Counted from the first letter of the stretch, positions 6,401 to 60,603 are shown. The stretch: DNA of 64,000 bases from a bacterium (GCA_965261595.1 CBDHDG010000006.1:1120001-1184000), one strand, 5' to 3'. The notes: generated by a model not told the origin, from the letters alone. Numbers and translations: made by a program.

Positions 6401-7283
6401 CCCGGATCCGCGTGAGCAGGCGGCCCAGGGTCTCCTCGCGCAGCGCCATCTGGTGGCGGCGCTCTTCGGCGGCCCCGTCCGCGGCGGACCATTCGGCGCG
6501 CAGCTCGGCCTCCTCGCGTTTTCGCTCGTCGTAGGCCTTTTGCTTCGGGGCGATGTGCTGATCCAGGGCCGCGTAGTCGGCGCGCAGGAGCCGGCCGTCC
6601 ACCTCCCGGAGCCGGTCCTGGATTTCCTTGTACTGGGAGGCCCGCTTGGCCTGGCGTTCCAGCGAGCGGGTTTGACGCTCCACTTCCCCTACGATGTCGT
6701 TGATGCGGTCCAGGTTGTCCTGGGCCGCCCGGAGCTTGCGGAGGGCCTCGTTTCGCCGGGTCTTGTACTTCATAATCCCGGCCGCTTCTTCGATGACCTC
6801 CCGGCGGTCTTCCACCCGGGTCGTCAAGAGGGCCTCGATCCGCCCCTGCTCGACGATGGAAAAGGAATGCGTGTTGAGCCCGGTGTCCATGAAGAGGTCC
6901 ACGACGTCGCGGAGGCGGGTGGTTTTCTGATTGATGAGGTATTCGCTGTCGCCGGAGCGGTAGAGCCTTCGGGTCACCCGGACGGTGTCCTCGACCGCCC
7001 ATTGGGCCGACAGGCGGCTTGAGATGTCCGACAGCGTCATCGTGACCTCGGCCATCGCGGCCGGACGCCGGCCATCGCTGCCGTTGAAGATCATATCTTC
7101 CATCCGCTTTCCGCGGAGAGTCTTCGGCTGCTGCTCCCCCAGCACCCAGCGGATGGCGTCCACGACGTTGCTCTTGCCGCACCCGTTGGGGCCGACAATG
7201 CCCGCTACGCCCGATCCGAACTCCAACTGGGTCCGTTCGATGAAGGATTTGAATCCCTGAAGCTCGATCCGCTCGATGCGCAT
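3411..7283 (-). CDS. smc: Chromosome segregation protein SMC
   Basis: GFKSF, Walker A GPNGCGKSN, long coiled coils, hinge, LSAGEK signature and Walker B LLDEVDATLD. Confidence 0.97.
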   Translation of the reverse strand: MRIERIELQGFKSFIERTQLEFGSGVAGIVGPNGCGKSNVVDAIRWVLGEQQPKTLRGKRMEDMIFNGSDGRRPAAMAEVTMTLSDISSRLSAQWAVEDTVRVTRRLYRSGDSEYLINQKTTRLRDVVDLFMDTGLNTHSFSIVEQGRIEALLTTRVEDRREVIEEAAGIMKYKTRRNEALRKLRAAQDNLDRINDIVGEVERQTRSLERQAKRASQYKEIQDRLREVDGRLLRADYAALDQHIAPKQKAYDERKREEAELRAEWSAADGAAEERRHQMALREETLGRLLTRIRDGDAEAHRLETRIELYLEQREALETAAETRKEEGNALQAELTAAAESLERARGEAERQNHTVRETEQELSRRQSELRETRSGQTAREESIEAEKSRVHELAGRFTRAEIQIQSFQDQLSSLDRRKAQVDAERARDRQRQKETQSRLESAERRSEEASAALEDVRAREAALRGELEEKTAGLARTQEAMYRLKEDLASQSSSLTALEGLARSMDGSGWKGWPGEILSPLADLMEVQPGYEIAIEAVLGERLQGAVVEGPSEVRDAVEHLRKSGAGRGALIPKDLRVRPAGGSSPPVYYEGYCPPFAAPQLKGAGILGNAADFVRAPAEFASLVRRLLDGVRVVRDFDAAISLWKRGGEVGVLVTRAGEVLHPSGITSAGTLGAGPLQRRKEIEGLKTKTAGLREEIDRAEAAREGEKEHRAGLAGMLEDCLRAAREAESDLAEIRREMEGLEAGVSRLGDGLEASHQELERMAEEGDALGESMRRTRETLDQIGKECTEAEACVRDGASALAEGREKVEQAAESVASQREALAEVRARANNRTAEVQRFEERCREIRGRMDRLGENAESDRARLEALGQSDLQARERIREIHDHRETWGTEAKDLEEAIAADQAFLRETQERARGLQDRTAALQEELEAISESLSQLKVERDLLCQRAQISYGVDLAAVTISPEEADLPDEERESLREEATSLQDRMRRMGDVNMGALSEFEQLNERYQFLKGQQEDLVSSIQTLHDTIDRINRTTRQRFKTAFDAISETFSEVFRRLFGGGRAALVLSDESNLLKTGVDIMVQPPGKKLGNILLLSAGEKALTAISLLFAIFRYHPSPFCLLDEVDATLDDHNVARFIDVLRELSLKTQFIIITHNKRTMSFADVLYGVTMIEKGVSGVVSVDLNRMSPRTEDDAPGAESGASPHPLPTPAVETDAEPSAEDRWATIEPIDESEGNGRHGPPALEKVSSIESGETNGAPAAGDGPDESETEPSEKLPAESPLPSGG

Positions 7284-7358: not shown

Positions 7359-7406
7359 ATACAACAATTTGTGGATCGATCCGGATTTTTCCACTACATC
7401 TAGAGG
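7359..7406. promoter_or_regulatory. Tandem NrdR-box-like operators upstream of smc
   Basis: atacaacaatttgtgg (7359-7374) and ccactacatctagagg (7391-7406) fit the consensus acaCwAtATaTwGtgt. Their starts are 32 bp apart. Confidence 0.65.
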
Positions 7407-35316: not shown

Positions 35317-36285
35317 ATGGCGAAAAAAGCACCCGGAAAAGCGCACCGCAAGGGGATCACCATCGTTCAATTGATGGATATGTTTCCGACCGAGAAAGCC
35401 GCCACGGCGTGGTTCGAATCGGTAATCTGGCCGGACGGTCGCCACTGCCCCAAGTGCGGATCGCTCCGCACCAGCGAGGCCAGTCACGCGAAAATGCCCT
35501 ATTGGTGCACCGATTGCCGATCCTATTTCAGCGTCAAGACGGGCACGGCCATGCAGCGGTCGAAAATCCCACTCCGGAAGTGGGCCATCGCCATCTATCT
35601 CTGTCTGACAAACCTCAAGTCGGTTTCGTCCATGAAGCTGCAACGCGACATTGGCGTTTCGCAGCCCACGGCTTGGTTCATGCTTCACCGTATCCGGGAA
35701 GCATGGGGCGGGGATGGCGAAGGCCCGTTTGACGGCCCGGTCGAGTTCGACGAAACCTATGTCGGCGGGAAGCGCCAGAACATGTCGAACGCGAAGCGCA
35801 AGGCGACGACGGGGCGCGGACCGGTGGACATGGTGGCGGTCGTGGGCGCGAAGGACCGGGCGACGAACAAGGTCAACGCCCGCGTGATCGAGAGCACCGA
35901 CAAGGCCACGCTGCAAGATTTCGTGGCCGAGAACGCCGAGCCGGACGCGGTGGTCTACACCGATGACGCCGCTGCCTACGAGGGCATCCCGAACCCGCAC
36001 GAAAGCATTAAGCACTCGGTCTCCGAATACGTCAACGGCATGGCGCACACCAACGGGATCGAGTCCTTCTGGTCGATGCTCAAGCGCGCCCACAAGGGCA
36101 CCTTCCACAAGATCAGCCCGAAGCACATGCAACGCTACGTCTCCGAATTTGCTGGCAAACACAACGTCCGCGACTCAGGAACGCTTGCGCAGATGCGGCA
36201 CACCGTCGCTCGGCTGGTCGGGCGCAACCTTCTCTACCGCGACCTCATCGCGGACAACGGGCTTTCGTCGGGCTCCGGGGCGTAA
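35317..36285 (+). CDS. IS1595-family transposase
   Basis: CPKC...C..C zinc ribbon, EFDETYVGG, YTDD and HTNGIESFW motifs. Confidence 0.95.
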   Translation: MAKKAPGKAHRKGITIVQLMDMFPTEKAATAWFESVIWPDGRHCPKCGSLRTSEASHAKMPYWCTDCRSYFSVKTGTAMQRSKIPLRKWAIAIYLCLTNLKSVSSMKLQRDIGVSQPTAWFMLHRIREAWGGDGEGPFDGPVEFDETYVGGKRQNMSNAKRKATTGRGPVDMVAVVGAKDRATNKVNARVIESTDKATLQDFVAENAEPDAVVYTDDAAAYEGIPNPHESIKHSVSEYVNGMAHTNGIESFWSMLKRAHKGTFHKISPKHMQRYVSEFAGKHNVRDSGTLAQMRHTVARLVGRNLLYRDLIADNGLSSGSGA

Positions 36286-45823: not shown

Positions 45824-46557
45824 GCCTCCCGACGGATTCCGCCCCTGGCTCGCCGGCCGCCTCCGGCCGGAGCGGCGTCATTCAGGAACTCCGAAGCCGC
45901 ATCCTTCGCGGTCGCCCTCCCTCGGAGCATTCGTATCACCGGACGTTTCGACCGGTCCACCAGCATCTCATCGTGGGTGGCCACAAGGATCGTGGTCCCG
46001 CCGGCGTGGATCAGCGAGAACAGCTCGACCATTTCATTGGCCAGGTCCGGGTCGAGATGACCCGTCGGCTCGTCGGCCAGGAGGATGTCCGGCCGGTTGA
46101 CAATGGCGCGGGCGACCGCGACCCGCTGCTGCTCTCCGCCGGAGAGCAGGCCGGGTTCGTCATTCATCCGCCTTCCCAGTCCCACCTGATGCAATACGAA
46201 TCGGACGCGCCGCCGAATCTCGGAGGTCGGGGCGCCCATGACCCTCATGGCGAACGCGACGTTCTCGAACACCGTCCGCCGCGGCAACAGGCGGAAATCC
46301 TGGAAAACCACGCCGATTCGCCGTCTGAGGAAGGGGACCTCGCGCTCGGGCAGGTGCGTCACGTCGGAGCCGTCTACCAGAATACTCCCCCGGTCGGCGA
46401 CCTCGGCCCGGTAGAGAAGCTTGAGCAGCGTCGTCTTTCCCGCTCCGCTGGGGCCCATCACGAACAGGAACTCCCCCCGGGGCACATGGAGCGAGACATT
46501 CTTCAGGGCGTCCAGGCCGGGTCCGTAGGACTTATAAACGTGTCGAAGCCGGATCAC
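45820..46557 (-). CDS. ftsE: Cell division ATP-binding protein FtsE
   Basis: [25 protein letters not shown] and ADEPTG motifs. Confidence 0.95.
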
Positions 46558-46623
46558 GGATTGAATGGTCCCCTCTCTGGTTCTTCGAGGTCGGACCCGG
46601 GAATCCACGCCGGGCGAGCGCCT

Positions 46624-48263
46624 TTATGAATCCTCGCCCTCCTTTGGTTTCGCCCGAATCCGATCAAGCAGCCCCTCCAGCCGCTCGATGGTCGCCTCCT
46701 GTCCGCTCTCCGAGGCGGGGGACGATTCCACTCGGGTCTCCTCAGAGGGGGGCGCCGGAGCGGGGGGCGAAGCCTTCACAGCGGGCTCCGAGGCATGAAG
46801 CGCCGGCTCCTCGGAAGGCACCGGAGCGGCGGGGGGGGCGGCGCTTCCTGTTCGACCGCCCCGACAGGGTCGGCCACAGGGTCGGCCGCCAACGCATCGG
46901 GCTCTTCGTCCGCGTCGGACGCAACGTCGTCCAGATCCGTCAGCCAATCCGCTTCGGAGGTCTCAAGCTCATCTTCCAGGGGAGGGGGGGGGGATTCCGA
47001 CTCCGGCGGACTTTCCGCTTCCGAAACCAGCAGATCCTCCAACTCTCCCGGAAACGGCTCCTCCTCCGGGACCGCTTCGGCGAAACCCGTTGGAACCTCG
47101 GCCGGACCGTCCGCATCCACCGATCCGGTTTCCGGTTCGGCCGGGGAGGGCTCGCGGTCACCGGCGATATCCTCCAGGGCCGGGCCGGCGCCCGGAGAAG
47201 CGTCGTCCGCCACACCCTTTTCCTCCAGGTCATACAACTCCAAGGCGGGATCGGGTTCCCCGTCATCAAGCACGGCTTCTTCGGATTCCTGAGCCGATTC
47301 CTCTTCCACTGAGATCACGGAATCAACCTGAACCCCGGATGAGGCGAAATCGGGTTCCTCCTCATCGGGTTTTTCGTCTGCGCTTTCCCGCGCCGATTCC
47401 TCTTTCTCCGGGACCGGAGAATCAACTTCCACGCCGGATTCGGCGAGCTCCTGCTCGAATGCGATGGCCTGTTCCAATTCTTGGATCTTGACCGGAATGG
47501 TCTTGTCATCCGGTTTATCCTTCAGGACCATCCGGTAGGTGACCAGGGCCGCCTTGAGATTTCCCTGTCCTTCATAGAGACGGGCCAGCGTCGGTGTGTA
47601 CTGGGGGTCCGACATCTCCATGCCGGCGAGCTCTGGGAAAGGGCTACTCTCTAGGGCGACGGGGATTTCGACCTCCGAGGCCGGCTCTTCGGCGGTCCCC
47701 GCGTCCTCGGCCTCCGGGGGAGGCCCTCCCTCCTCGACTTCCGCGTTCTCCGGGGGAAGCGTTTCGACGCTTGACTCCGAACCCCCTTTTCGGCCCATCC
47801 CGCCTTCGGCCAGCTCTTCATCTAAAGAGACAAGTGTATCCAATGTCTCGGTGTTTCCGGGGAGCAGCCAGAGGAGCTCTTCGAATTGCAGCTTGGCATC
47901 TTTCAGGTTTTGGTCTTCGCGGTAGAGATTGCCCAGCGCTTGGCGGGCGATCAGGTTGGTCGGGGAGGCCTCCAGGATGATCTCCAACTCGGATTGGGCC
48001 TCCTCCCGGTCGCCGCGCTCGATCAGGATCATCGCCAGCGCGACGCGGGCGCTCAGATAATCAGGATGGCTTTCCAGACCCGCCCGGCAGACCTCGAGCG
48101 CCTCATCATACCGCTTGGCCTTTCGATAGCCGTTGGCGAGAATGAGGAACCCGAATCCCTCCGAGTCCTGCAAACCAACGCCTTTGCCCTTTTGTCCGGC
48201 CCGACCCGATTTTCGTTTTTTTCCAAACATTTCTGACTGACTCCCTTCGGACGGCATAGCCAT
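46624..48263 (-). CDS. TPR-repeat protein with long acidic linker; apparent frameshift in a C8 tract near the 3' end
   Basis: N-terminal TPRs (LANGYRK..RYDEAL..C..GL..HPDY.SAR) and TPTLARLYEGQG. The acidic composition resumes in ORF 46624..46947, ending IERLEGLLDRIR. Confidence 0.8.
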
Positions 48264-48417
48264 CCAAGGTTACCTCATACCCAACTTAGCAAACGGCATT
48301 CCCGGTTCGCAACATTAGTTTCTTTCGTGATTATGCCTTTGACGCAGTAAGACACAAGATATAGGTGCGATTTTGAGACACTACATGTTGTGGTTATCCA
48401 ACAGGAGGGGGTCACTT

Positions 48418-48633
48418 TTAGGGACCCGTGGAACCACATATCCTCCCATTGATGATGGCTGGTGGCCCGACGTAAGAGCCCCGAATTTCGAGTGGGATGC
48501 GTTTCTTCGGCGGTTTCTTATTCCTTATCCCCATCAAGTAGAAACCCGCATAGAAGAGAAGATCAATAACCCTAGAGGCTGCTTCGGAGATGAACCATTC
48601 AAAAACGTCAAATCCTTCGCATTTTGCTTCCAT
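48418..48633 (-). CDS. Cassette A cargo: small hypothetical protein
   Basis: 71-aa ORF with a purine-rich RBS-like sequence and one hydrophobic segment followed by a basic tail. Confidence 0.4.
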   Translation of the reverse strand: MEAKCEGFDVFEWFISEAASRVIDLLFYAGFYLMGIRNKKPPKKRIPLEIRGSYVGPPAIINGRICGSTGP

Positions 48634-48672
48634 TGCCCCAGTCCTCCTTCAAGGTTGGGTGGTGATGGAACC

Positions 48673-48704
48673 GCAGCGCCAGGGGCGGGATCCCCTGGCG
48701 CTGC
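48673..48704. other. Perfect 13-bp GC-rich hairpin between cassette A cargo ORFs
   Basis: gcagcgccagggg-cgggat-cccctggcgctgc. Confidence 0.7.
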
Positions 48705-48726
48705 ACTTGTAAATCTTATTTTCCAC

Positions 48727-49077
48727 TTATTTGCACGAGATGAACTCGCACAACGTCTCAAAAACCTTGAATTCCCCTTCAAAACGGAAAGTCGTAGAGC
48801 CAGGGATGCTCTTCAGGTATTGGAATCCTTTTGGATGCTCACTCACCATGAAAATACGCCATTTCTCCTTTGCGTTTCGGTATCCAAGTTTATACAAAGC
48901 TACCAAATCGCGATCGTCCAACATGCGAAGTATGAGTTTTCTTCGTTCCAAATCCACATAAGCGGGGCTGTACACCGCACCTTTTCCGATAAAACAGGCC
49001 TTGTTGGATTCTCCAGCCATGACGGCGGAAGATGCGATGAGGGCAGTTGTAAGTATGCAACCGCCGATAGTACGCAT
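48727..49077 (-). CDS. Cassette A cargo: predicted exported hypothetical protein
   Basis: 116 aa, starting with the signal-peptide-like MRTIGGCILTTALIASSAVMA. GGGGGT precedes the ATG. Confidence 0.6.
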   Translation of the reverse strand: MRTIGGCILTTALIASSAVMAGESNKACFIGKGAVYSPAYVDLERRKLILRMLDDRDLVALYKLGYRNAKEKWRIFMVSEHPKGFQYLKSIPGSTTFRFEGEFKVFETLCEFISCK

Positions 49078-49466
49078 GGGCAGACCCCCAGAAAATCGAG
49101 GTTGACACGGGCTTGGGGATTTGCTACAAGGAGGGTCTGTGAGGTCCTCTCTTGTAGCAACGCCCCGGGGTTCCCTCGGGGCTTCCACCCTTTGAAGTTC
49201 CATATACCACATGTAGTGGGTCGGATTCAATTTTCGAGGGACCACCATATCTTGTGTCTTACTGCGTCAAGGGCATAATCACGGTTTCTTTCGCCTCGCC
49301 GCCAGCCGCCGAACGCCTCCCTGAACACCGGAGGCTCTCCCGGAAGGCCATCGGTCCGGAGGGGGGCTTGATCGCCTGCCGTCAACACGATACATTGTGG
49401 TTCGCGTGGGTCCTCGAAGGCGCTTCGGCCGACACCTTTCCGACCCCGAGCAAGGGGAGGCTCTGA

Positions 49467-50525
49467 ATGAATCCGGCACCGGATGCCAAGGAGAAGGCGT
49501 TGGCGACGGCCTTTTCCCAGATAGAACGCCAGTTCGGCAAGGGCGCGATCATGCGGCTCGGCGACAAGCCCCTCCCATCGGGCGCATCCTCCATCTCCAC
49601 CGGGTCGATCTCCTTGGACGCGGCCTTGGGAATCGGAGGGGTCCCGCGCGGCCGCATCGTTGAAGTCTATGGCCCGGAGTCCTCCGGGAAGACCACCCTC
49701 GCCCTGCACATCGTCGCTCAGGCCCAGAAGCAGGGAGGCATCGCCGGATTCGTGGACGCCGAACACGCCCTCGACCCGGGCTACGCGAAGAAACTCGGCG
49801 TGGTCACCGACGACTTGGTCATCAGCCAGCCCGACTCGGGAGAGCAGGCCCTGGAGATCACCGAGGTGTTGGTCCGCAGCGGCGCCCTCGACCTGGTGGT
49901 TCTCGATTCGGTGGCGGCGCTGGTGCCCAAGGCCGAGCTCAGCGGCGATATGGGGGACGCGCACATGGGCCTGCAGGCCCGGCTCATGTCCCAGGCCCTG
50001 AGAAAGTTGACGGCCGTCATCAGCAAATCCAATACGTGCGTCCTGTTCATCAACCAGATTCGGATGAAGATCGGCGTGATGTTCGGCAACCCGGAGACCA
50101 CCCCGGGCGGAAACGCCCTGAAGTTTTATGCGTCCATCCGGATGGACATCCGCCGGATCTCGGCCATCAAGGAAAGCGGCGAGGTGGTCGGCAACCGTAC
50201 GCGGGTCCGCGTCGTCAAAAACAAGATGGCCGCCCCCTTCCGGCAGGCGGAGTTCGATATCCTCTACGATCAGGGAATCTCCAAGTCCGGCGACCTGTTG
50301 GATTTGGCATCCGAAATGGACTTGATCAAAAAGAGCGGATCGTGGTTTTCCTATCAGGATCAGCGCATCGGTCAGGGACGGGAAAATGCGCGGCGCTTTC
50401 TCGAGGACAACCCGGAAATCATGGACACGCTTGAAACCATTGTGCGCGAGAACCTCGGTCAGCCGTCCCAACCAGCGCCCGGCGCCGGGGAGAATCAGGA
50501 TTCCGAGGAAACCGACGTCGACTGA
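49467..50525 (+). CDS. recA: Recombinase RecA
   Basis: [29 protein letters not shown] and [10 protein letters not shown] motifs. Confidence 0.99.
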
Positions 50526-50544
50526 AGGGACGCGACGTTCACCC

Positions 50545-51177
50545 ATGTCCCGGACGCGCCCAACAAAACCACCTCCTTCTTCCTCCTCCCGACCGACCCA
50601 CAAAAAGGGGCGGGACTTGACGGCGCTCGAGTCCGCCAAGGCGGACGCTTATCGTCTCATCGCCCGGCGAATGAGAACCCGCAAGGAGATTCAGACCCGG
50701 CTCCGACAACGGGGGCACCGGGAGGCGGTTGTCGAAGAAACCATCAAAAGCCTCCACGAGCTGGGCTACGTGGATGACGCCGCGTTCGCCCGAGAGTGGT
50801 GCCGGCGCCGGCTGGAGGACCGCCCGCTGGGCAGGCGGGGCCTGCTCCGGGAGCTCTCGGAGAAGGGCGTGCCGCGGGAAATCGCTGAGGGCGCCGTGAA
50901 TGAGGCGTTCGCGGGCGTGGAAGAAAGCCGACTGGCCGAGGGCTTGATCCGCCGACGCGCCGAAAATGGAATCGACCTCCGCTCCCCCAGGGACACCCGG
51001 CGGCTGAAGGGCTATCTTCTCCGCCGGGGGTTTTCCATCGAGAGCGTGAACGAAGCCCTCGCGGCCGCCGCGGGGACGCAAACTCGAGACCCGGCGGATC
51101 TGGAGGCCATGAGCCAGGACCCGCCATGGGACCCGCTGGAAGAAGAGATCGATGCCGATCGAGAAGGCGCGTCATGA
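50545..51177 (+). CDS. recX: Regulatory protein RecX
   Basis: RMRTRKEI..RL, GYVDDAAFA, ELSEKGV and YLLRRGFS motifs; follows recA. Confidence 0.93.
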   Translation: MSRTRPTKPPPSSSSRPTHKKGRDLTALESAKADAYRLIARRMRTRKEIQTRLRQRGHREAVVEETIKSLHELGYVDDAAFAREWCRRRLEDRPLGRRGLLRELSEKGVPREIAEGAVNEAFAGVEESRLAEGLIRRRAENGIDLRSPRDTRRLKGYLLRRGFSIESVNEALAAAAGTQTRDPADLEAMSQDPPWDPLEEEIDADREGAS

Positions 51178-51502
51178 GCGGATTTTCCGCTTTCGGGGCC
51201 GGCCGTTTTCCCGCGGCTTGGCCGCAATCGGGCTTTTCGCATTGGCGGCGGCCCTCTGGGCAGCGGCCGCTTTCGCTCAGGGATCGGGCTCGACGCCTCC
51301 CGCCAACGGCGTCCGCGATCCGCGAAATCTCGGAATTCTGACCCCGCGGGAATATCCCCTCGTCAAAAGAGACGTCCGGTCCGCTTCGGACATCGTCCGG
51401 CGGGCCGAATCTCTCGGAAGACATCTTGCAAATCCCGAGGCGCAGTCCAATGGATCGAATCCCCGCGGCCGAGACCGTCCGCCGGCCGGAGCGGACCGCT
51501 GA
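51152..51502 (+). CDS. Hypothetical exported protein
   Basis: Signal-peptide-like GLAAIGLFALAAALWAAAAFAQ. Start uncertain. Confidence 0.4.
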   Translation: MPIEKARHERIFRFRGRPFSRGLAAIGLFALAAALWAAAAFAQGSGSTPPANGVRDPRNLGILTPREYPLVKRDVRSASDIVRRAESLGRHLANPEAQSNGSNPRGRDRPPAGADR

Positions 51503-52026
51503 AGGAGGGGACGATTCTCCCCGGTCTTCCGTCTTCCCGGACGAGCCCGTTCCGCAAATCCTGGCCGAGCCCGGCTGGCAAATCTGGTTCCGGGCGGGCC
51601 GGCGCGTCCCCTCCGTCTGGGGGGCGGCCCCGTCGGGGATCTATGTGTTGGCGCTGGACCTCGAGAAGGACGCCGAGATTACGGTGGGCGCTCTCGGGGA
51701 AAGAAAGTTTCCCGCGGGGCGGCACTTACTTCTATACGGGACGGGCCATGCGGGGGCTCGAGGCTCGGCTTGCGCGTCACGTGCGCAGAACAAAAGACCG
51801 GCCCCGGTGGCACATCGACCACCTTCGCGCGCGGGCAAGGCTTCTGACCATCTCGGTTCTCCCGGCCGACGACCCTTCACTGGAGTGCCGGACCGCCGGC
51901 CGGCTGCTGGCCGCGGGAGGAAGGATCGAGGTTCCCGGCTTCGGCTCATCGGATTGCGCTTGTCCCGCGCATCTGTTTTCTATGCCCCGTAGTGGCCGCC
52001 TCGGGGCGATTTCCCCAGGAGAATGA
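51450..52026 (+). pseudogene. DUF123 (GIY-YIG-like) protein, frameshifted near 51720
   Basis: GIYVL...VGALG..FPAG lies in one frame; YFYTGRA..GL..RL.RH, WHIDHL and PGFGSSDC.C.AHL lie in the next. Confidence 0.82.
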
Positions 52027-52030
52027 ATCC

Positions 52031-53347
52031 ATGACCAGGTCGTTGGCGATACGCGGCGCCACGCTTGTGACGCTGGATCCAGAGATCGGGGTCGTCCCGG
52101 ACGGACTTCTCGTTCTGGAGGACGGCCGAATCCGCGAGGTCGGGGAGGATCCCGGCGCGGACCCGCGGGCCGATGACTTCATCGACGGACGCGGGCTCAT
52201 CGCCCTGCCCGGCTTTGTCAACGCCCACATGCACACCCGCCCCGTCCGCGCCCTCGGCGACGAGCTCCCCGTCCCCGAGTGGCACGCCCGGTACGCCGAC
52301 GGCGTCAGCGTCCTCATGGACGACGAGGACTCCCGCAAGGGCGCTCTGTTGGCCTTCTCGGAATGCCTCCTCGCGGGCTATACGTCGGCGCTGGCCATGC
52401 CGGTGAAGCCGCAGGGCTGTTTTCGCGGGGCGGTCGAGATCGGCATCCGGGCCGGGGTCGCCCCACACACGGCGGACCAGCCGCTGATCGAAGGGTCATG
52501 CGACACCATCGAGGACAACGCCCGACTGATCGAGACGTGCGGCGTCTCCGCGGACGAGCGGGTCCATTCGTGGCTGGGCTTCGACGTCCTGGCGGGTTGC
52601 AGCGACGGGATGATCCGCGGGATGCGACAGACCGCCGGCCGGTTCGGCGTCCGCGTGCACGGCCACATGAGCGAGCACCGGGGAGAGGTCGGCTACGCCC
52701 TCGAACGGTGGGGGAAAAGACCCCCCGCCGCCTTGGAAGACCTGGGCCTCCTCGGTCCCGATCTGGTCCTGGCCCACTGCGTCAAGACCGACCGGGACGA
52801 CATCGAGGCCCTTGCGCGCACGGACACGAAGGTCGTCCACAATCCCGTTTCGAACATGAAGTTCGGCAGCGGGGGCGCGCCGGTCGCGGCGATGCTGGAA
52901 GCGGGCGTCACCGTCGCCCTCGGCACGGACGGGATGCTCTCGACCTACCGTCTCGACCCCTTCGAGACCATGCGCCAGGCATTGAATCTCCAGCGGCTCC
53001 TGGCGGAGGACGCGACCGCCCTCCTGACAGAAAAGGCCCTGGAGATGACCACCCTCCAAGGGAATCGGGCGCTCGGCTTCGACGGGGGCAGGCTTCGCCC
53101 GGGCCTGAACGCCGATGTGGTTCTCATCGACTCCCGGCGGCTTCAATGGACGCCCCGGGCGCGGGGAACCCACGACAACCTGATCGCCCTGCTCGTTTGG
53201 TCGGCCTCCGCGGCGGACGTGGACACGGTGATCGTGGATGGAACGGTGGCTGTTCGGAACCACACCCTGACGCTCGTGGATGAAGAGGTCGTCCGCCGGG
53301 AGGCCCAGGAAGCCTCCGATCGCCTCCTGGAGCGGCTGATTGTCTGA
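52031..53347 (+). CDS. Amidohydrolase family (MTA/SAH deaminase-like)
   Basis: PGFVNAHMH, HGHMSE, LAHCV, HNPVSNMK and ALGTD motifs. Confidence 0.92.
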   Translation: MTRSLAIRGATLVTLDPEIGVVPDGLLVLEDGRIREVGEDPGADPRADDFIDGRGLIALPGFVNAHMHTRPVRALGDELPVPEWHARYADGVSVLMDDEDSRKGALLAFSECLLAGYTSALAMPVKPQGCFRGAVEIGIRAGVAPHTADQPLIEGSCDTIEDNARLIETCGVSADERVHSWLGFDVLAGCSDGMIRGMRQTAGRFGVRVHGHMSEHRGEVGYALERWGKRPPAALEDLGLLGPDLVLAHCVKTDRDDIEALARTDTKVVHNPVSNMKFGSGGAPVAAMLEAGVTVALGTDGMLSTYRLDPFETMRQALNLQRLLAEDATALLTEKALEMTTLQGNRALGFDGGRLRPGLNADVVLIDSRRLQWTPRARGTHDNLIALLVWSASAADVDTVIVDGTVAVRNHTLTLVDEEVVRREAQEASDRLLERLIV

Positions 53348-53562
53348 TCCCCTAACCTGGATTTCGGACAAAGAGGAGATGCCAGCCTTGTTTCATTCTG
53401 ACAACTTGTTTTTGATCAGCCGGTTGCCGGAAGCGAACAGAACGACAAGGCCGGAACACCGTGTCATTCACGGAAGTGCCACATTCAATCGCGGTGTAGC
53501 GTTGGAGGCGCTCAGAGGAACAGGTCTTGGATGACCCTTGGGAGGGTTCGGGGCGTCCCCGC

Positions 53563-54073
53563 TCATGGGGCCAGGAGGGCCTGAAGCTCGGAGGTCAGGG
53601 TCCGGGCGGAGGTCGGGCCAAAATGCTCCCCGGCCACAACTCCCAGCTTGTCTACGAGAACGAACTTGGGGACAAACCAGACGCGGTATGTATCCTTGGC
53701 CCAGGTGTGAGCGACTGAGATCCGAGCCGGGTCGATGATGACGACATTGGCCCGACCGCCGAAGCGCCTCCTGTGCTCAGACATGGGCTCAACAGAGCGC
53801 AGGCAGACGTTGCAGAGGTGGTCGATGAAGGATGAGGGTGGGCCAGCCCTCCCCCACGAGTTGCCGCAGGCGATAAGGGTCCTTCTCCTCGATGGCCACC
53901 AGACGGCGGGCCATCCCCTCCAGATCAAAAGAAGTCCGCTGACCATAGAGGGGCGCCGCGCCCATCGCCGCGCAAAAGGCCGCGAGGCCCAAACACCCCT
54001 TCAGGACCCCGCTCCATTCCCCGAAATGTCTTCTCACCCCCGGCGTCTCTCCTATCGCCTGCGGGCGCGTCAC
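53563..54073 (-). pseudogene. Exported thioredoxin-fold protein (CxxC), frameshifted near 53830
   Basis: ORF 53789..54073 (hydrophobic leader...GWPTLI) joins ORF 53563..53946 (SFIDHLCNVC...YRVWFVPKFVLVDK.G). Confidence 0.7.
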
Positions 54074-54995
54074 TTGCCCATCGGGGCGATCTCTACGATC
54101 GCCTTGAGGTCCGAGTCGATGGTGAAGCGGATGCGGTCCCCCGGCTGGAGACCCTTGAGGAGCCCAGCCGGTTTCACCGGATAGCCCATGATCATCGCGG
54201 CCATAAAGCCCGGGATCTCCTTGTGGTCCACGACGATCTGGCTCTTGCGCATGTCGGCCAGGATGACCTTCCCCTCGCCCCTGAAGGTGAGGGGGGTGAT
54301 CTTCACGATGGCTTTCCGGTCGGCATCGATGGTGAAGCGAATCCGGGCGCCCGCTTCGAGGCCCTTGAGGAGCTTGGCAGGCTTGACCGGATAGCCCATG
54401 ATCATCTCGGCCATGAAGCCCGGGATCTCTTTGTGGTCCACGACGATCTGGCTCTTGCGCATGTCCGCCAGGATCACCTTCCCCACGCCCTCGAAGAGGC
54501 GACCGGCGGCGGCCACCCGCTCTTCTTTGGGCTCCCCGCCCTTTCCGACGATAAACGTCCCCTCCATCCCCATCTTCTGGTGGGTGTGGACGTGGCAGTG
54601 AAACTCCAGCGTGATGTCCTCATCGGGGGTGATGAACCGGGCGGTCCGCACACCGGGGCCTCGGAACTCCAGCATGAACATGGGGTTGAGGCCGGGGATC
54701 ATGAGGGCGTGGCGGACGGCGTCCTTGTTCTCCAGGACAACCTCCACCTCCTCGCACCGGCCGAGGCGGATCTCCTTGGGCTCAAAACCGACGACCTCCC
54801 CCTCGCCCGCGAATTCAACCCCTCCCTTCACGTAAATCCGGCGGAAACCCCGGGGCTTCTCACAGGAGCGGGCCACGGGCCGATGCTCCTCCAGGAGCCG
54901 CTGCCGTTCCGTGACTTTTGGCGTCTCGTCTCCGGCGTTGTCGGAGCGATGCCCGCGCCTCTCGCCCGGGGCATTTCCCTCTCCTTTTTTGGGGG
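54070..54995 (-). CDS. Cupredoxin domain plus two CusF-like domains (probable C-terminal part of the multicopper oxidase gene)
   Basis: RHALM...FHCHVHTHQKMGM type-1 Cu motif, then 2x VDHKEIPGFMAxMIMGYPV. No convincing start codon of its own. Confidence 0.82.
54075..54495. repeat. Tandem 210-bp domain duplication (two CusF-like units)
   Basis: ggatagcccatgatcatc and ttgtggtccacgacgatctggctcttgcgcatgtc recur with a period of 210 nt. Confidence 0.9.
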
Positions 54996-56323
54996 TGAGA
55001 GCCGTGGGGCTTCGGTTTGGCCTCCTTGCCCCATCCTTTTTCGTGCTCGGCGAAGGTTGAGTGAAAGATGGACGGGTCAAAGACGGGGACCTTGCCTCGG
55101 TAGTAATCGGGGTCAAAGAAGCGGTCGAGAGACGTGGCGACAAGGGGCAGGCCGTCTGGACCGATGAACTTCTCATAGGCGATGATCGTCAGGTCCCCGC
55201 CCGGGGAGATCCCCTTGTTCGTCACCCTCTCCTCGGTATGGTCGTGCATCACCCAGACGCCGGGCCCCGAGGCATAGGTATCGTCGGGTGTGGTGCGCAA
55301 CTCTAAGTCTATCCGCTGCGCGGGGGATATGGTGAAGACATCTCGGGCGATCCGCGCGGACTCCGGCACGGGATAGCCGTCCACGTGGGTCAGGATGGGA
55401 TGGTGGCCGTGTGTGTGCAGGGCGATGGTCCGCGCCCCGGCGTTCAGGATGCGGAGCTTGACCCGCTCGTTCGGCTTCACCTTGATCAGGGTGTCCCGGA
55501 GGGTGAAGGGAAAGGAGCGGCCGTTGAGCATGAAGATGTTGGGCTGCCGCTTTGTCGAGTCATACTCCCGGTGCATCTTCTTCTCGATCTGCCGGGGGTC
55601 ATCGTACTTCGTGGGCATGTCGTTGAGGCGGTCGTCGATGTCCGTGTTGACCAGGGAGCACTCCCGGTCGTAGCGCTCCGCCTGGGCCTTGGCCAGATCC
55701 TTGATCTCTCCGGCGCCCACAATGAGGTGGCGGAAGTTGTCGTTGGGCCGGTTGGGCTCAATGATGAACATCCCGACCAGGCCCATCAGGACGTGGACGT
55801 CGGGCTGAACGTGGCAGTGGTACCAGTGGGTGCCGGGGTTCTTGGCGACGAAATCATAGGTGAACTGGTCGCCGGGTCTTACCGCCTCCTGCGTGATGGT
55901 GGGAACGCCGTCCATGGCGTTGGGGTGGATGGTCCCGTGAGGATGGATGGTGTGGGGGAAGTAGTGGGTGTTCCGCAGGTGGATCTTGATCCGGTCTCCC
56001 TGCTCGACCCGGATGGTCGGGCTGGGGAACCGGGCCGCAGAGACCATCCCCTTCCCTTCGGGGGCGAAGACCCAGAAGGTGACGAACTTGCCGGGATAGA
56101 CCTCCTCCTGGACCTCGATGACCTCCAGGTTGATGGTGACCTCGTCGGGGTCTCCGTCACCGTCCAGGTCGCGCCCGAGAACAACGGCCTCCTTCGACAT
56201 CCCCGGGATCGGGGGCTCGATAAAGGCTGGGAGATCCTTGGAAGCGCCCGCCGGAGCCGGGAAAAACAGAAACAATGACAAAGAAAACAAGACCGTCCAC
56301 AGCCACGTCCGCGGGAATCTCAC
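54860..56323 (-). CDS. Exported two-domain multicopper oxidase (frameshifted before its probable C-terminal domains)
   Basis: Domain 1 has HTIHPHG and YHCHVQPDVHVLMGL; domain 2 has LHTHGH and MHDH. Signal peptide and strong RBS precede GTG 56323. Confidence 0.9.
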   Translation of the reverse strand: MRFPRTWLWTVLFSLSLFLFFPAPAGASKDLPAFIEPPIPGMSKEAVVLGRDLDGDGDPDEVTINLEVIEVQEEVYPGKFVTFWVFAPEGKGMVSAARFPSPTIRVEQGDRIKIHLRNTHYFPHTIHPHGTIHPNAMDGVPTITQEAVRPGDQFTYDFVAKNPGTHWYHCHVQPDVHVLMGLVGMFIIEPNRPNDNFRHLIVGAGEIKDLAKAQAERYDRECSLVNTDIDDRLNDMPTKYDDPRQIEKKMHREYDSTKRQPNIFMLNGRSFPFTLRDTLIKVKPNERVKLRILNAGARTIALHTHGHHPILTHVDGYPVPESARIARDVFTISPAQRIDLELRTTPDDTYASGPGVWVMHDHTEERVTNKGISPGGDLTIIAYEKFIGPDGLPLVATSLDRFFDPDYYRGKVPVFDPSIFHSTFAEHEKGWGKEAKPKPHGSHPQKRRGKCPGREARASLRQRRRRDAKSHGTAAAPGGASARGPLL

Positions 56324-56420
56324 GGCCTCTCCCTCCTCCGCAACATTTCGCCCCTCCCCCAGGATTGCCCTCCTGGAAAAGCGCGTCGGGTCCGGTAGCC
56401 GTACCCCCCCCATATTTTTT

Positions 56421-56978
56421 CTATTTCACGGTTTCAATCGCGACGATCTTCTTTTTGGCGGCGTCAATCTTGAACTTGACCCGGTCGCCCGGCTTGAAGC
56501 CCTTCAGGAGGGCCTTGGACTCCACCGCGTATCCCATCCCCTCGTAAATGCCCTTAGTCGCCATCTCCATTTTCATCCCGGGTTTCATCTTCATGCCCGG
56601 CTTCATCTTCATCTGGGCTTTCATTTTCATCCGGCCTGGGGCCTTTGCGCTCATTTTGCCTGCCATGACCTCTGCGGCGTAGGCGTACCCTATGGCGGCC
56701 TTGGCCTTCGCGACGGCGCGGGCGTGGTCATAGGCCCCCTGGGGCTTTTTGTGGTTATGAATGCCGCTCGTCAGCAACATCTTCGCGTCATCGATGAGGG
56801 TGTGGTCAAGCTGCATGTTCCGCCCCATTGACATTTGTTTCATGGCCGCCGTGGCCTTTGCAATCGCCGCCTTCGCGTCTTTGAAACGGGCGGGGCACTC
56901 AAAGGCGATCGCTGTTGAAGCAAAACCGAACGCCAAAAACACTCCGACAACGATTCCTGCGATGATCCGGGTTTTTAT
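56421..56978 (-). pseudogene. Exported Met/Lys-rich copper-binding-like protein with internally deleted CusF domain and ATA at the expected start
   Basis: Signal peptide (I)KTRIIAG...TAIA, FECP...DH helical region and MKMKPG repeats. The CusF-like tail lacks the VDH...M segment. Confidence 0.65.
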
Positions 56979-57647
56979 TTTGTTTCCCCACTTGGTGTCA
57001 AAAGATTGTCGGGATGGAGCTTCTGGAGGGCCCCTGCCCTCTGAACAAGCGGCAGCGGTGTTTCGAAGCGCTACAGGAAGCCCACAATACCGTTGGAGGA
57101 GGTGGCGGTCTGAAGGAAAGGCGCTGCCGAGGCCGCTAATTAGATCAACCAGAGCCAGTCTATTTAATTCTCCCTGTCGAGATGGAAGACGAGGTGCACC
57201 CTCCACTTGTGCCTTCGTCTCCGGCTTCGTGGTAACCGGCAAAGGGTATTTCCAACGCGCCCAGCAACAGCAAGAACAGGAGAGCACCGAGAATGATCTT
57301 CATTCCAGACTTCCCCCAATTCGCGAATGTGGGCGAGCGGTGGACGCTCGTAGCAGCCCTTCTCGGCTGGTATGGGTCATCCTCGACGGTCGGAGGGTCG
57401 CGGCCCTTGGTCTTGAATCCTTTGCTTAACCGGAATTTCCCATATCAACTTGCTTGCGTGGTTTCCGGTCCCCTTTCCCGATGAAAACCATTTGATCCCC
57501 TTCCAATGGGCTTGTCAACAGCCTTCCAACCCTCCGTAACAGGGGGCTGACGGCCATCGGCTGGCCCAAAGGGCGGACCCTCGCCCTTCGGTCTCCTTTG
57601 TCCACTTTCATTCCGGCCTTCATCTTCATGGCCGGTTTCATTTTTTT

Positions 57648-58555
57648 CGGAATTATGTACTTGACGCAGACGACCACAACATGTAGATCGTCCCCGCGTC
57701 TCGGCTGACCACAAGATGTAGGGGCATGCTTCAACTCAAGTCATGGTGGAGTTGGATTCGCAATTATGCGCTTGACTCAACCGAAGAGGGATCATACAAT
57801 GACTGAATCATGCTCAATTGGCTTCGCAAAGTCGCCCTCTTTTTGGCGGGTGAATTACTGCGGAGCTGGATATGGCCCATTGCGGTCACGGCGGCTGGCG
57901 TCATGATCGGTTTTGCGCAACATATCCAGTTGTTCAACCTATATGTTGGAGCGGTCATTCTGTTTTCAGTTTCCTCTATGGGATTGTTGCGATTCAGCGA
58001 ATGGCGGTATCGTAATAGAGTTGCGGATATGCTTAACTTTCATAGTGTGAGAACTGACAGAATAATCGACAAAGCTGGTGTAGTAAAATCACTGCGGATT
58101 GGTGCTACGTTTAACAACAAAGCTCTTTTCCCGGTGACATTTGAGGTTGTAAATGTCGTCTCAACATTTGATAAGTTGTACCCGACAAAAGAGCCATATG
58201 CCAAGAATAGCTATACCATCCCTGCAGGAGGGATGGGGTGGTTTGACGATCACTACATATCCTATAGAGCAGAAGAGAAGCGGCGTTTTTGAGGGCGGTC
58301 TTGAATTTGAGTTTAAGTACGGAAGAAAAGGAAAAACCAACAACACATTGCATATAAACAAAAAGTTGTTTTTACACTTCAATGAAAAGGGCGATATTCA
58401 GCGCGTGGATTTTATCGATCAATGAAACCGAACGATCTGATAGAGCGCATCTTCTGGAAACGGATCGATGGAAGCATGCCCCTACATCTTGTGGTCAGCC
58501 GAGACGCGGGCGCGACCTACATGTTGTGGTCGTCTGTGTCAAGTATATAAATACG
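57648..58555. mobile_element. Non-autonomous IS1595-like cassette B (no transposase, cargo gene)
   Basis: 85-bp TIRs with 78/85 identity (57648-57732, 58471-58555). Perfect 8-bp TSD ATTTTTTT (57640-57647, 58556-58563). Low-GC interior. Confidence 0.92.
57810..58425 (+). pseudogene. Cassette B cargo: membrane-anchored hypothetical protein, apparently frameshifted near 58270
   Basis: ORF 57810..58292 (two TM helices plus a beta-rich region) continues plausibly in ORF 58153..58425 (GVFEGGLEFEFKYG...). Confidence 0.6.
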
Positions 58556-58564
58556 ATTTTTTTA

Positions 58565-59464
58565 GGTGATTGTAAAAGATATGACACCGGATTAGGCTGG
58601 TGTCGTGGACCTGAAGAGCTTTGAAGTCCTTGTAAAATCGGAAGCTACAGCGAGACGCCATCTGCTCATGGCGTGTCAGAAAAACGGGCGTAAAATCTGC
58701 CCTCGTTGTGAGGGTCGAAAACGCTACGTTTTGGGCACGCGGGGGCGCTTTCGCTGCGCTGGGTGTCGGTACACCTTCGGGCCGTTCACGGGCCGCTGGC
58801 TGGGCCAACTTCGCCTCTCGGCCCGGCAGTGGCTTTGGGTGGTGAAGCTCTTTGAGCTGGAGGTCTCGGCCCGCAAGATGGCCCAGCAACTCGCCGTGAG
58901 CTATCCGACAGCGCTGCGGGCCGTGACGACGCTCAGGCGCAGTCTTGTGGCCGGCACGCCGGGGGGACAGGAGCTTCTTCGAGGGGAGGTGGAGGCGGAC
59001 GAGGCCTACTTCGGGGGCAAGCGCAAGGGCAAGAGAGGCCGAGGCGCAGCGGGTAAAGTCCCTGTTTTCGGCATATTGGAGCGGGGCGGCCGGGTGAAGG
59101 TGGAGGCGGTCGGCAACGTCAAGGCCCAGACCCTTTTGGCCTCCACCGTGAAGTTGGTCCGTCGGGGCAGCGTGGTCTACACCGACCGCTACCGGGTCTA
59201 TGACGCCCTGATGTTCTGCGGCTATCGCCACTTGCGGGTGGATCATGATCGGCGCTTCAGTCGGGGCAAAGTGCACATCAACGGCCTGGAAGGCTTTTGG
59301 GCCTACGCCAAGGAGAGGCTCATCAAACATCATGGGGTGTCCAAAGAGCGGTTCCCCCTCTACCTGAAGGAGATGGAATTCCGTTACAATCACCGACACC
59401 AGGATCTCTTTCCCCTGGTGGTACAACATCTCACTCAATTGGTGTCAAAACCTTTATAATCCCC
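58565..59464 (+). mobile_element. IS1595-family insertion sequence
   Basis: 24-bp imperfect IRs ggtgattgtaaaagatatgacacc / ggtgtcaaaacctttataatcccc. Near-perfect 8-bp TSD TTTTTTTA/TTCTTTTA. Confidence 0.92.
58605..59459 (+). CDS. IS1595-family transposase
   Basis: CPRC...CAGC, EADEAYFGG, YTD, HINGLEGFW and YLKEMEFRYN motifs. Confidence 0.95.
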   Translation: MDLKSFEVLVKSEATARRHLLMACQKNGRKICPRCEGRKRYVLGTRGRFRCAGCRYTFGPFTGRWLGQLRLSARQWLWVVKLFELEVSARKMAQQLAVSYPTALRAVTTLRRSLVAGTPGGQELLRGEVEADEAYFGGKRKGKRGRGAAGKVPVFGILERGGRVKVEAVGNVKAQTLLASTVKLVRRGSVVYTDRYRVYDALMFCGYRHLRVDHDRRFSRGKVHINGLEGFWAYAKERLIKHHGVSKERFPLYLKEMEFRYNHRHQDLFPLVVQHLTQLVSKPL

Positions 59465-59916
59465 TTCTTTTATTTGGGCTTATGCAGAGGGCACAACGCC
59501 GAAAACCAAAAACACTCCGACAACCAAACCCGTTGCTTAGCCGTGTTTCATTTCGCTTCTCCCCTGACGGCTGATGAACCACAAATCGGGCGCGCCGCGC
59601 GCACCACAACCCGCGTTCGCCCGGCGGAGTCGGCCGCATCTCCCACGAGCGCGAACGGCATGGCCCCGCAAACGACCGAGGTCACGGCGTTCCGAACGTC
59701 CAACAACTTACCGGACGCAAGACTCGCCATCGGATTCAGCCAATCCCCGCGTCGTCACTCGTCTTGAGCAAGAGAGCGACACCCCCCGGGCATTCCTGCG
59801 CCGCCGTTCGGCCGATCTTTTCCCCCTTATTATTTAACCTCTACCGGGAGTAAGAATTTCCAGACCCACATGCGGCGCAGGAAGTCCTTGTCCGCACCTT
59901 TGAAGGAACCCGGTTC

Positions 59917-60603
59917 CTAGACGTTCTCTATCCGCCGGGCGGACAGCCCCTGGAAAACGTGGAGCATGAACGCCGCCGAGACGACGGGCGCCAGGAGGTT
60001 CAGAAGGGGAACGCTGAACAGAAGGACGATGAGCAGTCCCGCCCCGATGATCCGCACCCGGTTGCCTTTCCGGACTCGGTGAACCGCTCTCTTATCCAGG
60101 CGTCTGATTGCGACGAGCTCGAAGTACTCCCGTCCCAACAAGTAAGCATTGAGCAGATAGGCGGCGACAGGCCCCAGCCCCGGAATCAAGTACACCGGCA
60201 ACGCGATCAGGTTGATCACGACCAGGGCGGCCGTCAACCGGACGACGATGGCGATACTTTCCGAAAGGGGCTGCGCCCGGGTCGGCGGCAAACCGGGGTA
60301 ATGGCGCGACTCGACGGCCGCGAAAATCTTTTCCAGAAACAGCGTCATCATCAGCGTCGCGACGGCGGGGAACAACAGCCATGTCAACACCAAGGCCGAG
60401 AGACCGCCGAGGATGTCGAGGGCGTTGTCGAGCCAACCGATCTTGAAGACGGTGACTTCCGCCAGGATCCACCAAACGCCGGCGATCAGGACGGCGAACA
60501 CGCCGGCCGTGATCAAAATGCCGCGCCGGACCACCTTCCAGCACGACCTTTCCGTTAAGATGGACAAGGCCCGAACGGCCGCGGTCAACATCGTCCATTC
60601 CAA
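59917..60603 (-). CDS. EI24/CysZ-like membrane protein
   Basis: FLE.I..AVE.RHYP, YLLGREYFELVA.R and VPLLNLLAPV motifs. Confidence 0.88.
   Translation of the reverse strand: MEWTMLTAAVRALSILTERSCWKVVRRGILITAGVFAVLIAGVWWILAEVTVFKIGWLDNALDILGGLSALVLTWLLFPAVATLMMTLFLEKIFAAVESRHYPGLPPTRAQPLSESIAIVVRLTAALVVINLIALPVYLIPGLGPVAAYLLNAYLLGREYFELVAIRRLDKRAVHRVRKGNRVRIIGAGLLIVLLFSVPLLNLLAPVVSAAFMLHVFQGLSARRIENV

Follow-up and report, generated by a model that had tools for sequence, protein, structure and literature searches.

IS1595-type cassettes without a transposase and the NrdR-like boxes at their ends

We analysed a 64,000-nt stretch of a bacterial genome (GCA_965261595.1, CBDHDG010000006.1:1120001-1184000; hereafter the window) in which two elements of about 0.9 kb, A and B, share their ends, carry unrelated genes, and encode no transposase. 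The elements are mobile insertion cassettes (MICs) derived from the insertion sequence (IS) family IS1595, a known kind of element, and their notable twist is a duplicated subterminal box, a 16-mer found twice near each tip. Of their identity as MICs we are nearly certain. We consider it likely that the boxes belong to the transposon end and that the transposase is supplied in trans, and, judged from the sequences, docking of the transposase is the somewhat favoured role for the boxes. The original prediction for this DNA had noted their resemblance to the binding sites of NrdR and proposed that cargo expression or end accessibility is wired to deoxynucleoside triphosphate (dNTP) status. It had also offered an alternative, in which the motifs are subterminal repeats bound by the transposase and no more than similar to NrdR boxes, and this alternative fits better than the NrdR wiring.

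Structure and mobility of elements A and B

Coordinates without a contig prefix are window positions, and the others refer to contigs of the same genome (G000), which comprises 6.17 Mb in seven contigs. Element A, delimited by sequence reading and blastn, is 958 bp long (48326-49283) and lies between two copies of an 8-bp target site duplication (TSD), GTTTCTTT, at 48318-48325 and 49284-49291. Its terminal inverted repeats (TIRs; 48326-48362 on the plus strand and 49247-49283 on the minus strand) are 37 bp long and match at 36 of 37 positions, and beyond them the two ends diverge. Element B is 908 bp long (57648-58555), with the TSD ATTTTTTT at 57640-57647 and 58556-58563. The TIRs of B (57648-57732, plus, and 58471-58555, minus) extend over 85 bp with seven mismatches and contain both boxes. 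The GC content is 0.495 in A and 0.458 in B, compared to 0.631 in the window. The interiors of A and B give no blastn cross-hit, and the terminal motif common to the two elements, CGNNWTTATNNNYTTGACRCAG, occurs forty-seven times in the genome. The original prediction had described two elements of this size with shared ends, 8-bp TSDs, low GC content, unrelated cargo, and no transposase, and its coordinates were exact to the base.

No transposase was found in A or B by reading their open reading frames (ORFs) or by a Pfam scan of those ORFs, and the two elements are therefore derivatives rather than insertion sequences proper. A 301-aa plus-strand ORF that runs across A (48373-49278) was considered as a hidden transposase. 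It matched no family, lies antisense to cargo ORFs that are supported by a paralogue, and was rejected as spurious. Transfer RNA and Rfam scans across 46000-60000 gave no matches.

Both elements are present in multiple copies. A blastn search with A found six full copies at 99.9-100% identity, and a search with B found eleven copies at 99.8-100%. There is also a single 958-bp variant of A with a different middle (A2), which represents an alternative cargo, and a 1315-bp variant in three copies (A3), in which the cargoes of A2 and A stand in tandem. The two cargo variants of A differ through the gain or loss of whole paralogous genes. Remnants of A include one 221-bp fragment of the right end and one solo left end of 57 bp. 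Perfect 8-bp TSDs flank nine of the ten A-type copies and six of the eleven B copies. Across the element family overall they flank twenty-two of thirty-one, and the AT fraction of the duplicated octamers is 0.74, compared to 0.37 for the genome.

An empty site for A was found in a genome of the same genus (G001), where the two flanking sequences of A adjoin each other (at 91% and 96% identity) with a single GTTTCTTT. Inserting A in silico lengthens the adjoining minus-strand ORF from 452 to 470 codons. For B, no joint spanning the element was found among the contigs of four public runs that were placed on 57400-58700. Public RNA runs contained 0.04-0.09 of the sampled words. The search for further copies and empty sites, which the original prediction had suggested, yielded both, and its claim of a mobile, transposase-free cassette family stands on copy number, 8-bp TSDs, the empty site, and the matching termini of autonomous IS1595 elements.

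Box architecture and autonomous relatives

A profile of the ends was used to find further ends, among them those of three transposase-encoding element types in the same genome. The first (C6:703409-705509) is 2101 bp long with the TSD AAAGGAAT, the second (C7:637984-639734) is 1751 bp long with the TSD GATTAATC, and the third is 1815-1817 bp long and present in three copies, one of them at C5:10860. All three types have 8-bp TSDs, a transposase of 295-296 aa, and a passenger gene at the opposite end. The transposase of C6:703409-705509, the only one that was scanned, matches the IS1595 DDE domain (PF12762, 9.6e-35), the zinc ribbon (PF12760, 1.1e-10), and NCBIfam NF033547 (1.9e-61), and the other autonomous transposases are 74-81% identical to it by tblastn. 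The autonomous tips, CGTGATTATGCCCTTGAC, CGTGATTATATACTTGAC or CGGAATTATGCCCTTGAC, resemble those of A and B and have the general form CG(T/G)(G/A)ATTAT...CTTGAC. About the first nineteen end bases are common to the cassettes and the autonomous elements; compared with the ends of C7:637984-639734, the left end of A matches at 17/19 and its right end at 18/19. After base 19, the autonomous ends continue with ACA or AAA, whereas the cassette ends continue with GCAG or ACAG. The IS1595-family origin, which the length of the TSDs and the presence of passenger genes had suggested, is now anchored in autonomous elements of the same genome that share tips, 8-bp TSDs, and a PF12760 plus PF12762 transposase.

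Some target octamers recur. The octamer ATTGAAAT was duplicated by three independent insertions, one of A and two of B (C5:343476, C7:219749, C7:234873), in a similar GGATTGAAAT(G/T)G context, and GATTAATC is the TSD of one A3 copy as well as of the autonomous element at C7:637984. Such reuse hints at a target preference beyond AT-richness.

The eight boxes of A and B lie exactly where the original prediction had placed them, and its spacings of 26, 38, 35, and 35 bp are correct. Scores are given here in bits on an NrdR matrix that is described in the next section. In A, the left outer box ACACAAGATATAGGTG (48352-48367, 13.1 bits) starts at position 27 from the tip, and the left inner box ACACTACATGTTGTGG (48378-48393, 20.7 bits) follows 26 bp after it; the right inner box (49204-49219, 15.6 bits) is 38 bp from the right outer box (49242-49257, 19.8 bits). 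In B, the left outer box (57674-57689, 12.2 bits) likewise starts at position 27, with the left inner box (57709-57724, 16.3 bits) 35 bp after it, and the right inner box (58479-58494, 16.3 bits) is 35 bp from the right outer box (58514-58529, 9.2 bits). The eight-box pattern is far beyond chance because the elements are repeated, with six full copies of A and eleven of B.

We compared fifteen end types from nine transposase-less elements (A to I) with six autonomous ends. None of the nine two-box element types contains an IS1595 transposase of its own, and one copy of C encloses a nested IS that has a separate TIR and TSD. The outer box of the cassettes starts 26-27 bases from the tip in fourteen of the fifteen end types, and the inner box starts 53-65 bases from the tip in all fifteen. 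Start-to-start spacing is 35 bp in eight end types, 36 in three, 26 in two, and 38 in one. The autonomous ends have a single box, which starts exactly at position 27 in four of the six, and none of them has a second box. Five of these six ends also carry an inward promoter at positions 14-42 (TTGACA-17-TATATT, TAGTAT or TAATAT), and the box occupies its spacer and -10 element. A promoter scan found no inward sigma-70-like promoter at any of the four ends of A and B, where the box is retained. The boxes are asymmetric, and in most ends only one of their sides conserves CCAC. Subterminal transposase sites would be expected to keep such a fixed distance to the tip.

Could the boxes simply lack a present function, the outer one being the decayed remnant of an inward promoter and the inner one a neutral duplication? 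The same bases do form the spacer and -10 element of a near-consensus promoter in the autonomous elements, which A and B have lost, and the copies are too similar to reveal selection within the genome. We nevertheless think this unlikely, given how the boxes have been kept among diverged ends. The core CCACWANATRTAG is present at the outer site in 14/15 end types and at the inner site in 15/15, and the bases between and after the boxes vary freely. A two-box layout of 35-36 bp is also kept in another genus (see below). In A, moreover, the inner boxes persist outside the collinear TIR and at unequal distances on the two sides; the TIR alignment agrees here with the original prediction, which had placed them beyond the repeat.

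We prefer a model in which the boxes belong to the transposon end. The cassettes have the ends of the IS1595 family (CGnnATTATnnnCTTGAC) and its AT-rich 8-bp duplications, with passenger genes inside and no transposase. The 295-296-aa transposase of the autonomous relatives, with its zinc ribbon and DDE domain, would move them in trans, recognising the tip together with the box at position 27 and acting by cut-and-paste into AT-rich targets with an 8-bp duplication. The outer box would then be an ancestral segment of the TIR, the one that serves as spacer and -10 element of the inward promoter in autonomous elements. The inner box would be a duplicate of the outer one, confined to the transposase-less lineage, and may act as an extra docking site that recruits transposase and so compensates for none being made in cis. 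Element structure, copy number, TSDs, the empty site, the shared termini, the box register, and the family of the transposase were observed, and the choice of the acting enzyme and its contact with the boxes are inferred.

The cassettes could instead be moved by an enzyme other than those of the three autonomous types, such as another of the approximately forty-five IS1595-type transposases that tblastn located in the genome or one that is now lost. The autonomous ends do differ from the cassette ends after base 19 and are without an inner box, and many further IS1595-type loci exist, two of them in the window (35359-36252 and 58605-59456). However, the remaining IS1595 elements with definable ends have the tips GGGAATTA or GGCAACG and carry nothing like the box at position 27. 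Only in the three autonomous types do tip and box occur together. We regard another enzyme as quite improbable.

We next consider how far this end design extends. The exact end pattern is present in two of fifty-one sampled genomes of the phylum, with forty-three sites here and one in G006. The assembly of G001 is in 190 contigs, which makes the count of zero exact-pattern sites there weak. A looser 34-base end pattern, scanned over 185,579 species genomes, returned fourteen loci; the pattern itself requires the box and so cannot demonstrate that the box is conserved. Four of the fourteen have an IS1595 transposase within 2.5 kb. One of these (L096) is autonomous, has a transposase of 81% identity, and shows the same type of end with one box and a promoter, and the other three (L085, L090, L092) are alphaproteobacterial elements with transposases that are 36-42% identical. 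Three loci (L084, L088, L089) on one record from another genus of the host family are two-box ends with spacings of 35, 36, and 36 bp, and no transposase lies closer than 2.5 kb to them. For the remaining seven, a chance match is the probable explanation; six of these loci are in AT-rich sequence (GC 0.22-0.42).

The resemblance to NrdR operators

The genome does encode NrdR. The gene lies at about 158.4-158.9 kb on C2, downstream of an ORF that by eye resembles serine hydroxymethyltransferase, and its product has both the zinc ribbon (PF22811, 2.4e-21) and the ATP-cone (PF03477, 1.8e-19). The single ribonucleotide reductase is the class II enzyme NrdJ; neither a class I small subunit nor a class III reductase was found in the genome, which is estimated to be 96.7% complete. 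In five genomes of the host family, the nrdJ promoter has the hexamer TTGACA, a box within three bases of it, and a second box 31-32 bp further on. The ten boxes from these promoters were used to build a symmetrised matrix. On this matrix, the eight boxes of A and B score 9.2-20.7 bits. For 200,000 random 16-mers of the genome, the mean score is -21.3 bits and the 99.9th percentile is 3.8 bits. Elsewhere inside A and B, one other 16-mer reaches at least 8 bits (58250). The boxes match the quoted consensus acaCwAtATaTwGtgt at 10-13 of sixteen positions. With nrdR present and the scores far above background, the resemblance to NrdR boxes is real, and on both of these checks the original prediction held.

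The spacing of the boxes is another matter. We scanned the genome for pairs in which each box scores at least 7 bits and the sum is at least 24 bits. Nine pairs lie outside the transposon ends, with spacings of 31 bp (five pairs), 32 (two), 42 (one), and 45 (one). Inside the ends, the spacings are 26 (eleven pairs), 35 (twenty-nine), 36 (three), and 38 (eleven), together with odd ones of 17, 18, 53, and 55, and none is 31 or 32. The 31-32-bp pairs stand upstream of nrdJ, vsr, and the genes for HU, SMC, and MutL/MazG (by Pfam), and likely also of dcd, a dCTP deaminase ORF that was named by eye; a seventh lies beside cassette F and has no gene assigned to it. This coherent DNA-metabolism regulon validates the nrdJ matrix.

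One of these tandem sites is in the window, at 7359-7406, where boxes of 11.6 and 19.3 bits are spaced by 32 bp. It precedes the SMC gene (4857-7283, minus strand) by about 80 bp and, together with the similar pairs at other genes, suggests that the NrdR regulon extends beyond the reductase. The context of the tandem boxes at the HU gene (C2:98756-98802, 31 bp apart) is weakly like a two-box cassette end (nhmmer E = 1).

Measured between the boxes, the spacers in A and B are 10, 22, 19, and 19 bp, and over all ends they are 10, 19, 20, or 22 bp. According to PMC12051234, the optimum for NrdR is a spacer of 15-16 bp (14-18 bp being tolerated), with a weaker second optimum at 24-27 bp, and four NrdRs bound synthetic pairs with 19-20-bp spacers 13-280 times more weakly than pairs with the best spacer; that set did not include 10 and 22 bp. 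PMC9110341 describes an NrdR tetramer in which about three helical turns separate the two DNA-binding sites. When we looked 30-32 and 41-43 bp away from each of the eight boxes, no alternative partner scored above -0.8 bits.

Taken as working NrdR operators that tie the cargo or the ends to dNTP status, the paired boxes have several points in their favour. The gene for the repressor is present, all eight boxes exceed the random 99.9th percentile, the first box of nrdJ likewise comes directly after TTGACA, and 71 of the 104 genome 16-mers that score at least 14 bits fall within these ends. The geometry is against it, since the spacings at the ends are never 31-32 bp, as they are in seven of nine pairs elsewhere, and include the 19-20-bp spacers that bind poorly. 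A host repressor would have no need for the fixed distance between box and tip that MICs and autonomous elements share, and the autonomous elements have one box only. Nor do the boxes overlap the promoter of the B cargo, which sits about 50 bp further inside at 57772-57800. Furthermore, the B cargo gene is frameshifted in ten of eleven copies, so regulated expression of the cargo cannot be what maintains those ends. Because of the spacing, the register, the single autonomous box, and the broken B cargo we rate NrdR control as very unlikely, although the match to the motif is too good to dismiss. The dNTP wiring of the original prediction is thus not upheld.

NrdR might still contact these more than forty ends (seventy-one boxes, compared to about seven chromosomal operators) in a non-canonical way, for example with one zinc-ribbon dimer per box or by bridging the ends. 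We give this little credence. If true, transposition or end accessibility would follow the dATP/ATP state, or the amplified cassettes would act as a decoy that titrates NrdR and shift the expression of nrdJ, dcd, mutL/mazG, smc, HU, and vsr.

A DNA-reading head common to NrdR and the IS1595 transposase was also considered and rejected. BLASTP aligned the CxxC...CxxC pattern only (E = 0.038 in a single comparison), NrdR scored 14.7 bits against PF12760, below the cut-off of 25.4, and the transposase is gapped at the positions of the NrdR contacts D15/R17 and RRRR, which are taken from PMC9110341.

Several observations weigh against our preferred reading of the boxes as part of an IS1595 end served by a transposase in trans. 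First, TSDs are missing from five of the eleven B copies and one of the ten A-type copies. The five B copies (C6:1667271-1668178, C7:905605-906512, C3:129361, C7:8746, and C7:29393) have flanks that are reciprocal or chained, pairing as swapped flanks such as ATCATCCT/GTTTTTTC and GTTTTTTC/ATCATCCT; we read these as recombination between copies, although misassembly or assembly joins at repeats may also account for them. Second, the ends of the autonomous elements carry a single box and diverge from those of the cassettes after TTGAC, and their enzyme may not move A and B; the genome has about forty-five IS1595-type transposase loci. Third, all eight boxes keep C4, A6, A8, T9, T11, and G13 of the quoted NrdR consensus, and the transposon ends hold the majority of the high-scoring 16-mers of the genome. 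This match to the NrdR matrix exceeds what a transposase site would need, and the preferred reading does not account for it.

Cargo genes, neighbouring elements and known systems

In A, the cargo ORF (48727-49077, minus strand) is 116 aa long and its N-terminus is hydrophobic. The left arm of A contains a second ORF, of 71 aa (48418-48633, minus strand), which matched no family. The A cargo matched no Pfam, NCBIfam or PADLOC family and had no homologue in a search of 5.8 billion proteins. A diverged paralogue of the 116-aa ORF is present in A2 and A3, which argues that the cargo ORFs of A are real genes.

The B cargo gene (57810-58425, plus strand) is preceded by a sigma-70-like promoter, TTGACT-17-TACAAT, on the same strand, with 10/12 consensus matches. 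In the window the gene is frameshifted, with a 160-aa ORF (57810-58292) followed by a tail in another frame to 58425. A 907-bp copy of B (C7:234873-235779) encodes the uninterrupted protein of 204 aa. The one-base-shorter form is also present in contigs from two public runs, which have insertion flanks in common with this genome and are thus not independent of it. Beyond the genome's own entry, the B protein has eight unannotated homologues in the databases, at 56-87% identity, of which two are full length (204 and 208 aa). Its AlphaFold model, based on nine aligned sequences, has two N-terminal helices and a beta-sandwich (mean pLDDT 65.2), and Foldseek against the PDB returned generic beta-sandwich matches alone (TM 0.23-0.35).

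Other cassettes carry other genes. Cassette D encodes a DNA methyltransferase fused to an Mrr-like nuclease domain, interrupted by an IS3-type insertion. The cargo of cassette I (L060, 700-1587) matches, at 2.8e-08, the PADLOC candidate phage-defence family PDC-S42, which is also the NCBIfam family LAPAL (NF053583). The passenger of the autonomous element at C6:703409 (L053, 1302-2051, minus strand) belongs to the PDC-S42/LAPAL family too (1.1e-40), so the same kind of cargo moves with and without a transposase. A by-eye reading of the cargo of cassette C as HicAB-like had no support in the Pfam, NCBIfam or PADLOC libraries and was dropped.

Of the two IS1595-type transposase loci in the window, the gene at 35359-36252 matches PF12762 (8.9e-39), and its product shares about 40% identity with the autonomous transposases. 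The other (ORF 58605-59459) belongs to a compact IS1595 element of about 0.9 kb (58565-59465; PF12762, 5e-38), which begins no more than 10 bp from the right TSD of B and has at least seventeen copies in the genome at 94.7-99.9% identity. To the left of B, a repeat of about 175 bp (57427-57602) has about thirty copies in the genome (91-94% identity), and another genome of the host family (G003) contains several, the best at 95%. The repeat matched neither tRNA nor Rfam models and may be a miniature inverted-repeat transposable element (MITE) or another dispersed repeat. Elsewhere in the genome, larger cassettes have themselves served as targets (L002, C5:447433-450663; L001, C7:790727-793347; C5:124000-131200; and C6:1032665 onward). 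Nested in several of these are a 1405-bp IS3-type element, with copies that are 99.3-99.9% identical, and an element of 1677 bp whose transposase looks IS1380-like by eye.

The cassettes provide a clean and apparently still active example of IS1595-type ends that carry small cargoes without a transposase, and one end design serves at least nine cargo types. That the extra box is confined to the transposase-less lineage suggests a rule by which non-autonomous elements compete for a transposase made elsewhere. In addition, the analysis yielded a self-consistent NrdR regulon with a strict 31-32-bp spacing for a little-studied lineage, and it illustrates that a match to a regulator motif is insufficient without the correct geometry.

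Compared with NrdR operators, as described in PMC9110341 and PMC12051234, the ends share partly palindromic paired 16-mers, six consensus positions, and proximity to a TTGAC hexamer. They differ in their spacers, which are 10, 19, 20, or 22 bp in these ends rather than 15-16 (or 24-27) bp, and in that the boxes here are asymmetric, in a fixed register to the transposon tip, and located at both ends of mobile DNA rather than in a promoter of DNA metabolism. Like MITEs, the cassettes are non-autonomous, present in multiple copies, and bounded by the TIRs and TSDs of a parent IS. Unlike MITEs, which are short and non-coding, A/B-type elements are 908-1315 bp long with ORFs and a promoter of their own.

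The ISNwi1 subgroup of IS1595 has the end consensus ggnnatTAT. The ends of A and B, CGTGATTAT and CGGAATTAT, agree with it in ATTAT at bases 5-9 and have C instead of G as the first base. The autonomous partners share with this subgroup a PF12760 and PF12762 transposase with passenger genes next to it, AT-rich 8-bp TSDs, and ATTAT at bases 5-9; A and B differ in having no transposase and in tips that begin with CG, not GG. AT-rich 8-bp repeats are also described at another IS1595 member in PMC12561309.

The closest likeness is to MICs, with which A and B share IS ends around one or a few passenger genes, no transposase, a TSD of the parental length, and presumed mobilisation in trans. Reported examples are said to include MIC231 from IS231 in the Bacillus cereus group and the Tn3-family MICs of Xanthomonas. 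The cassettes described here differ in that their parent is IS1595, in the second internal subterminal motif that their autonomous relatives are without, and in the breadth of their lineage, which covers two or more genera and no fewer than nine cargo types.

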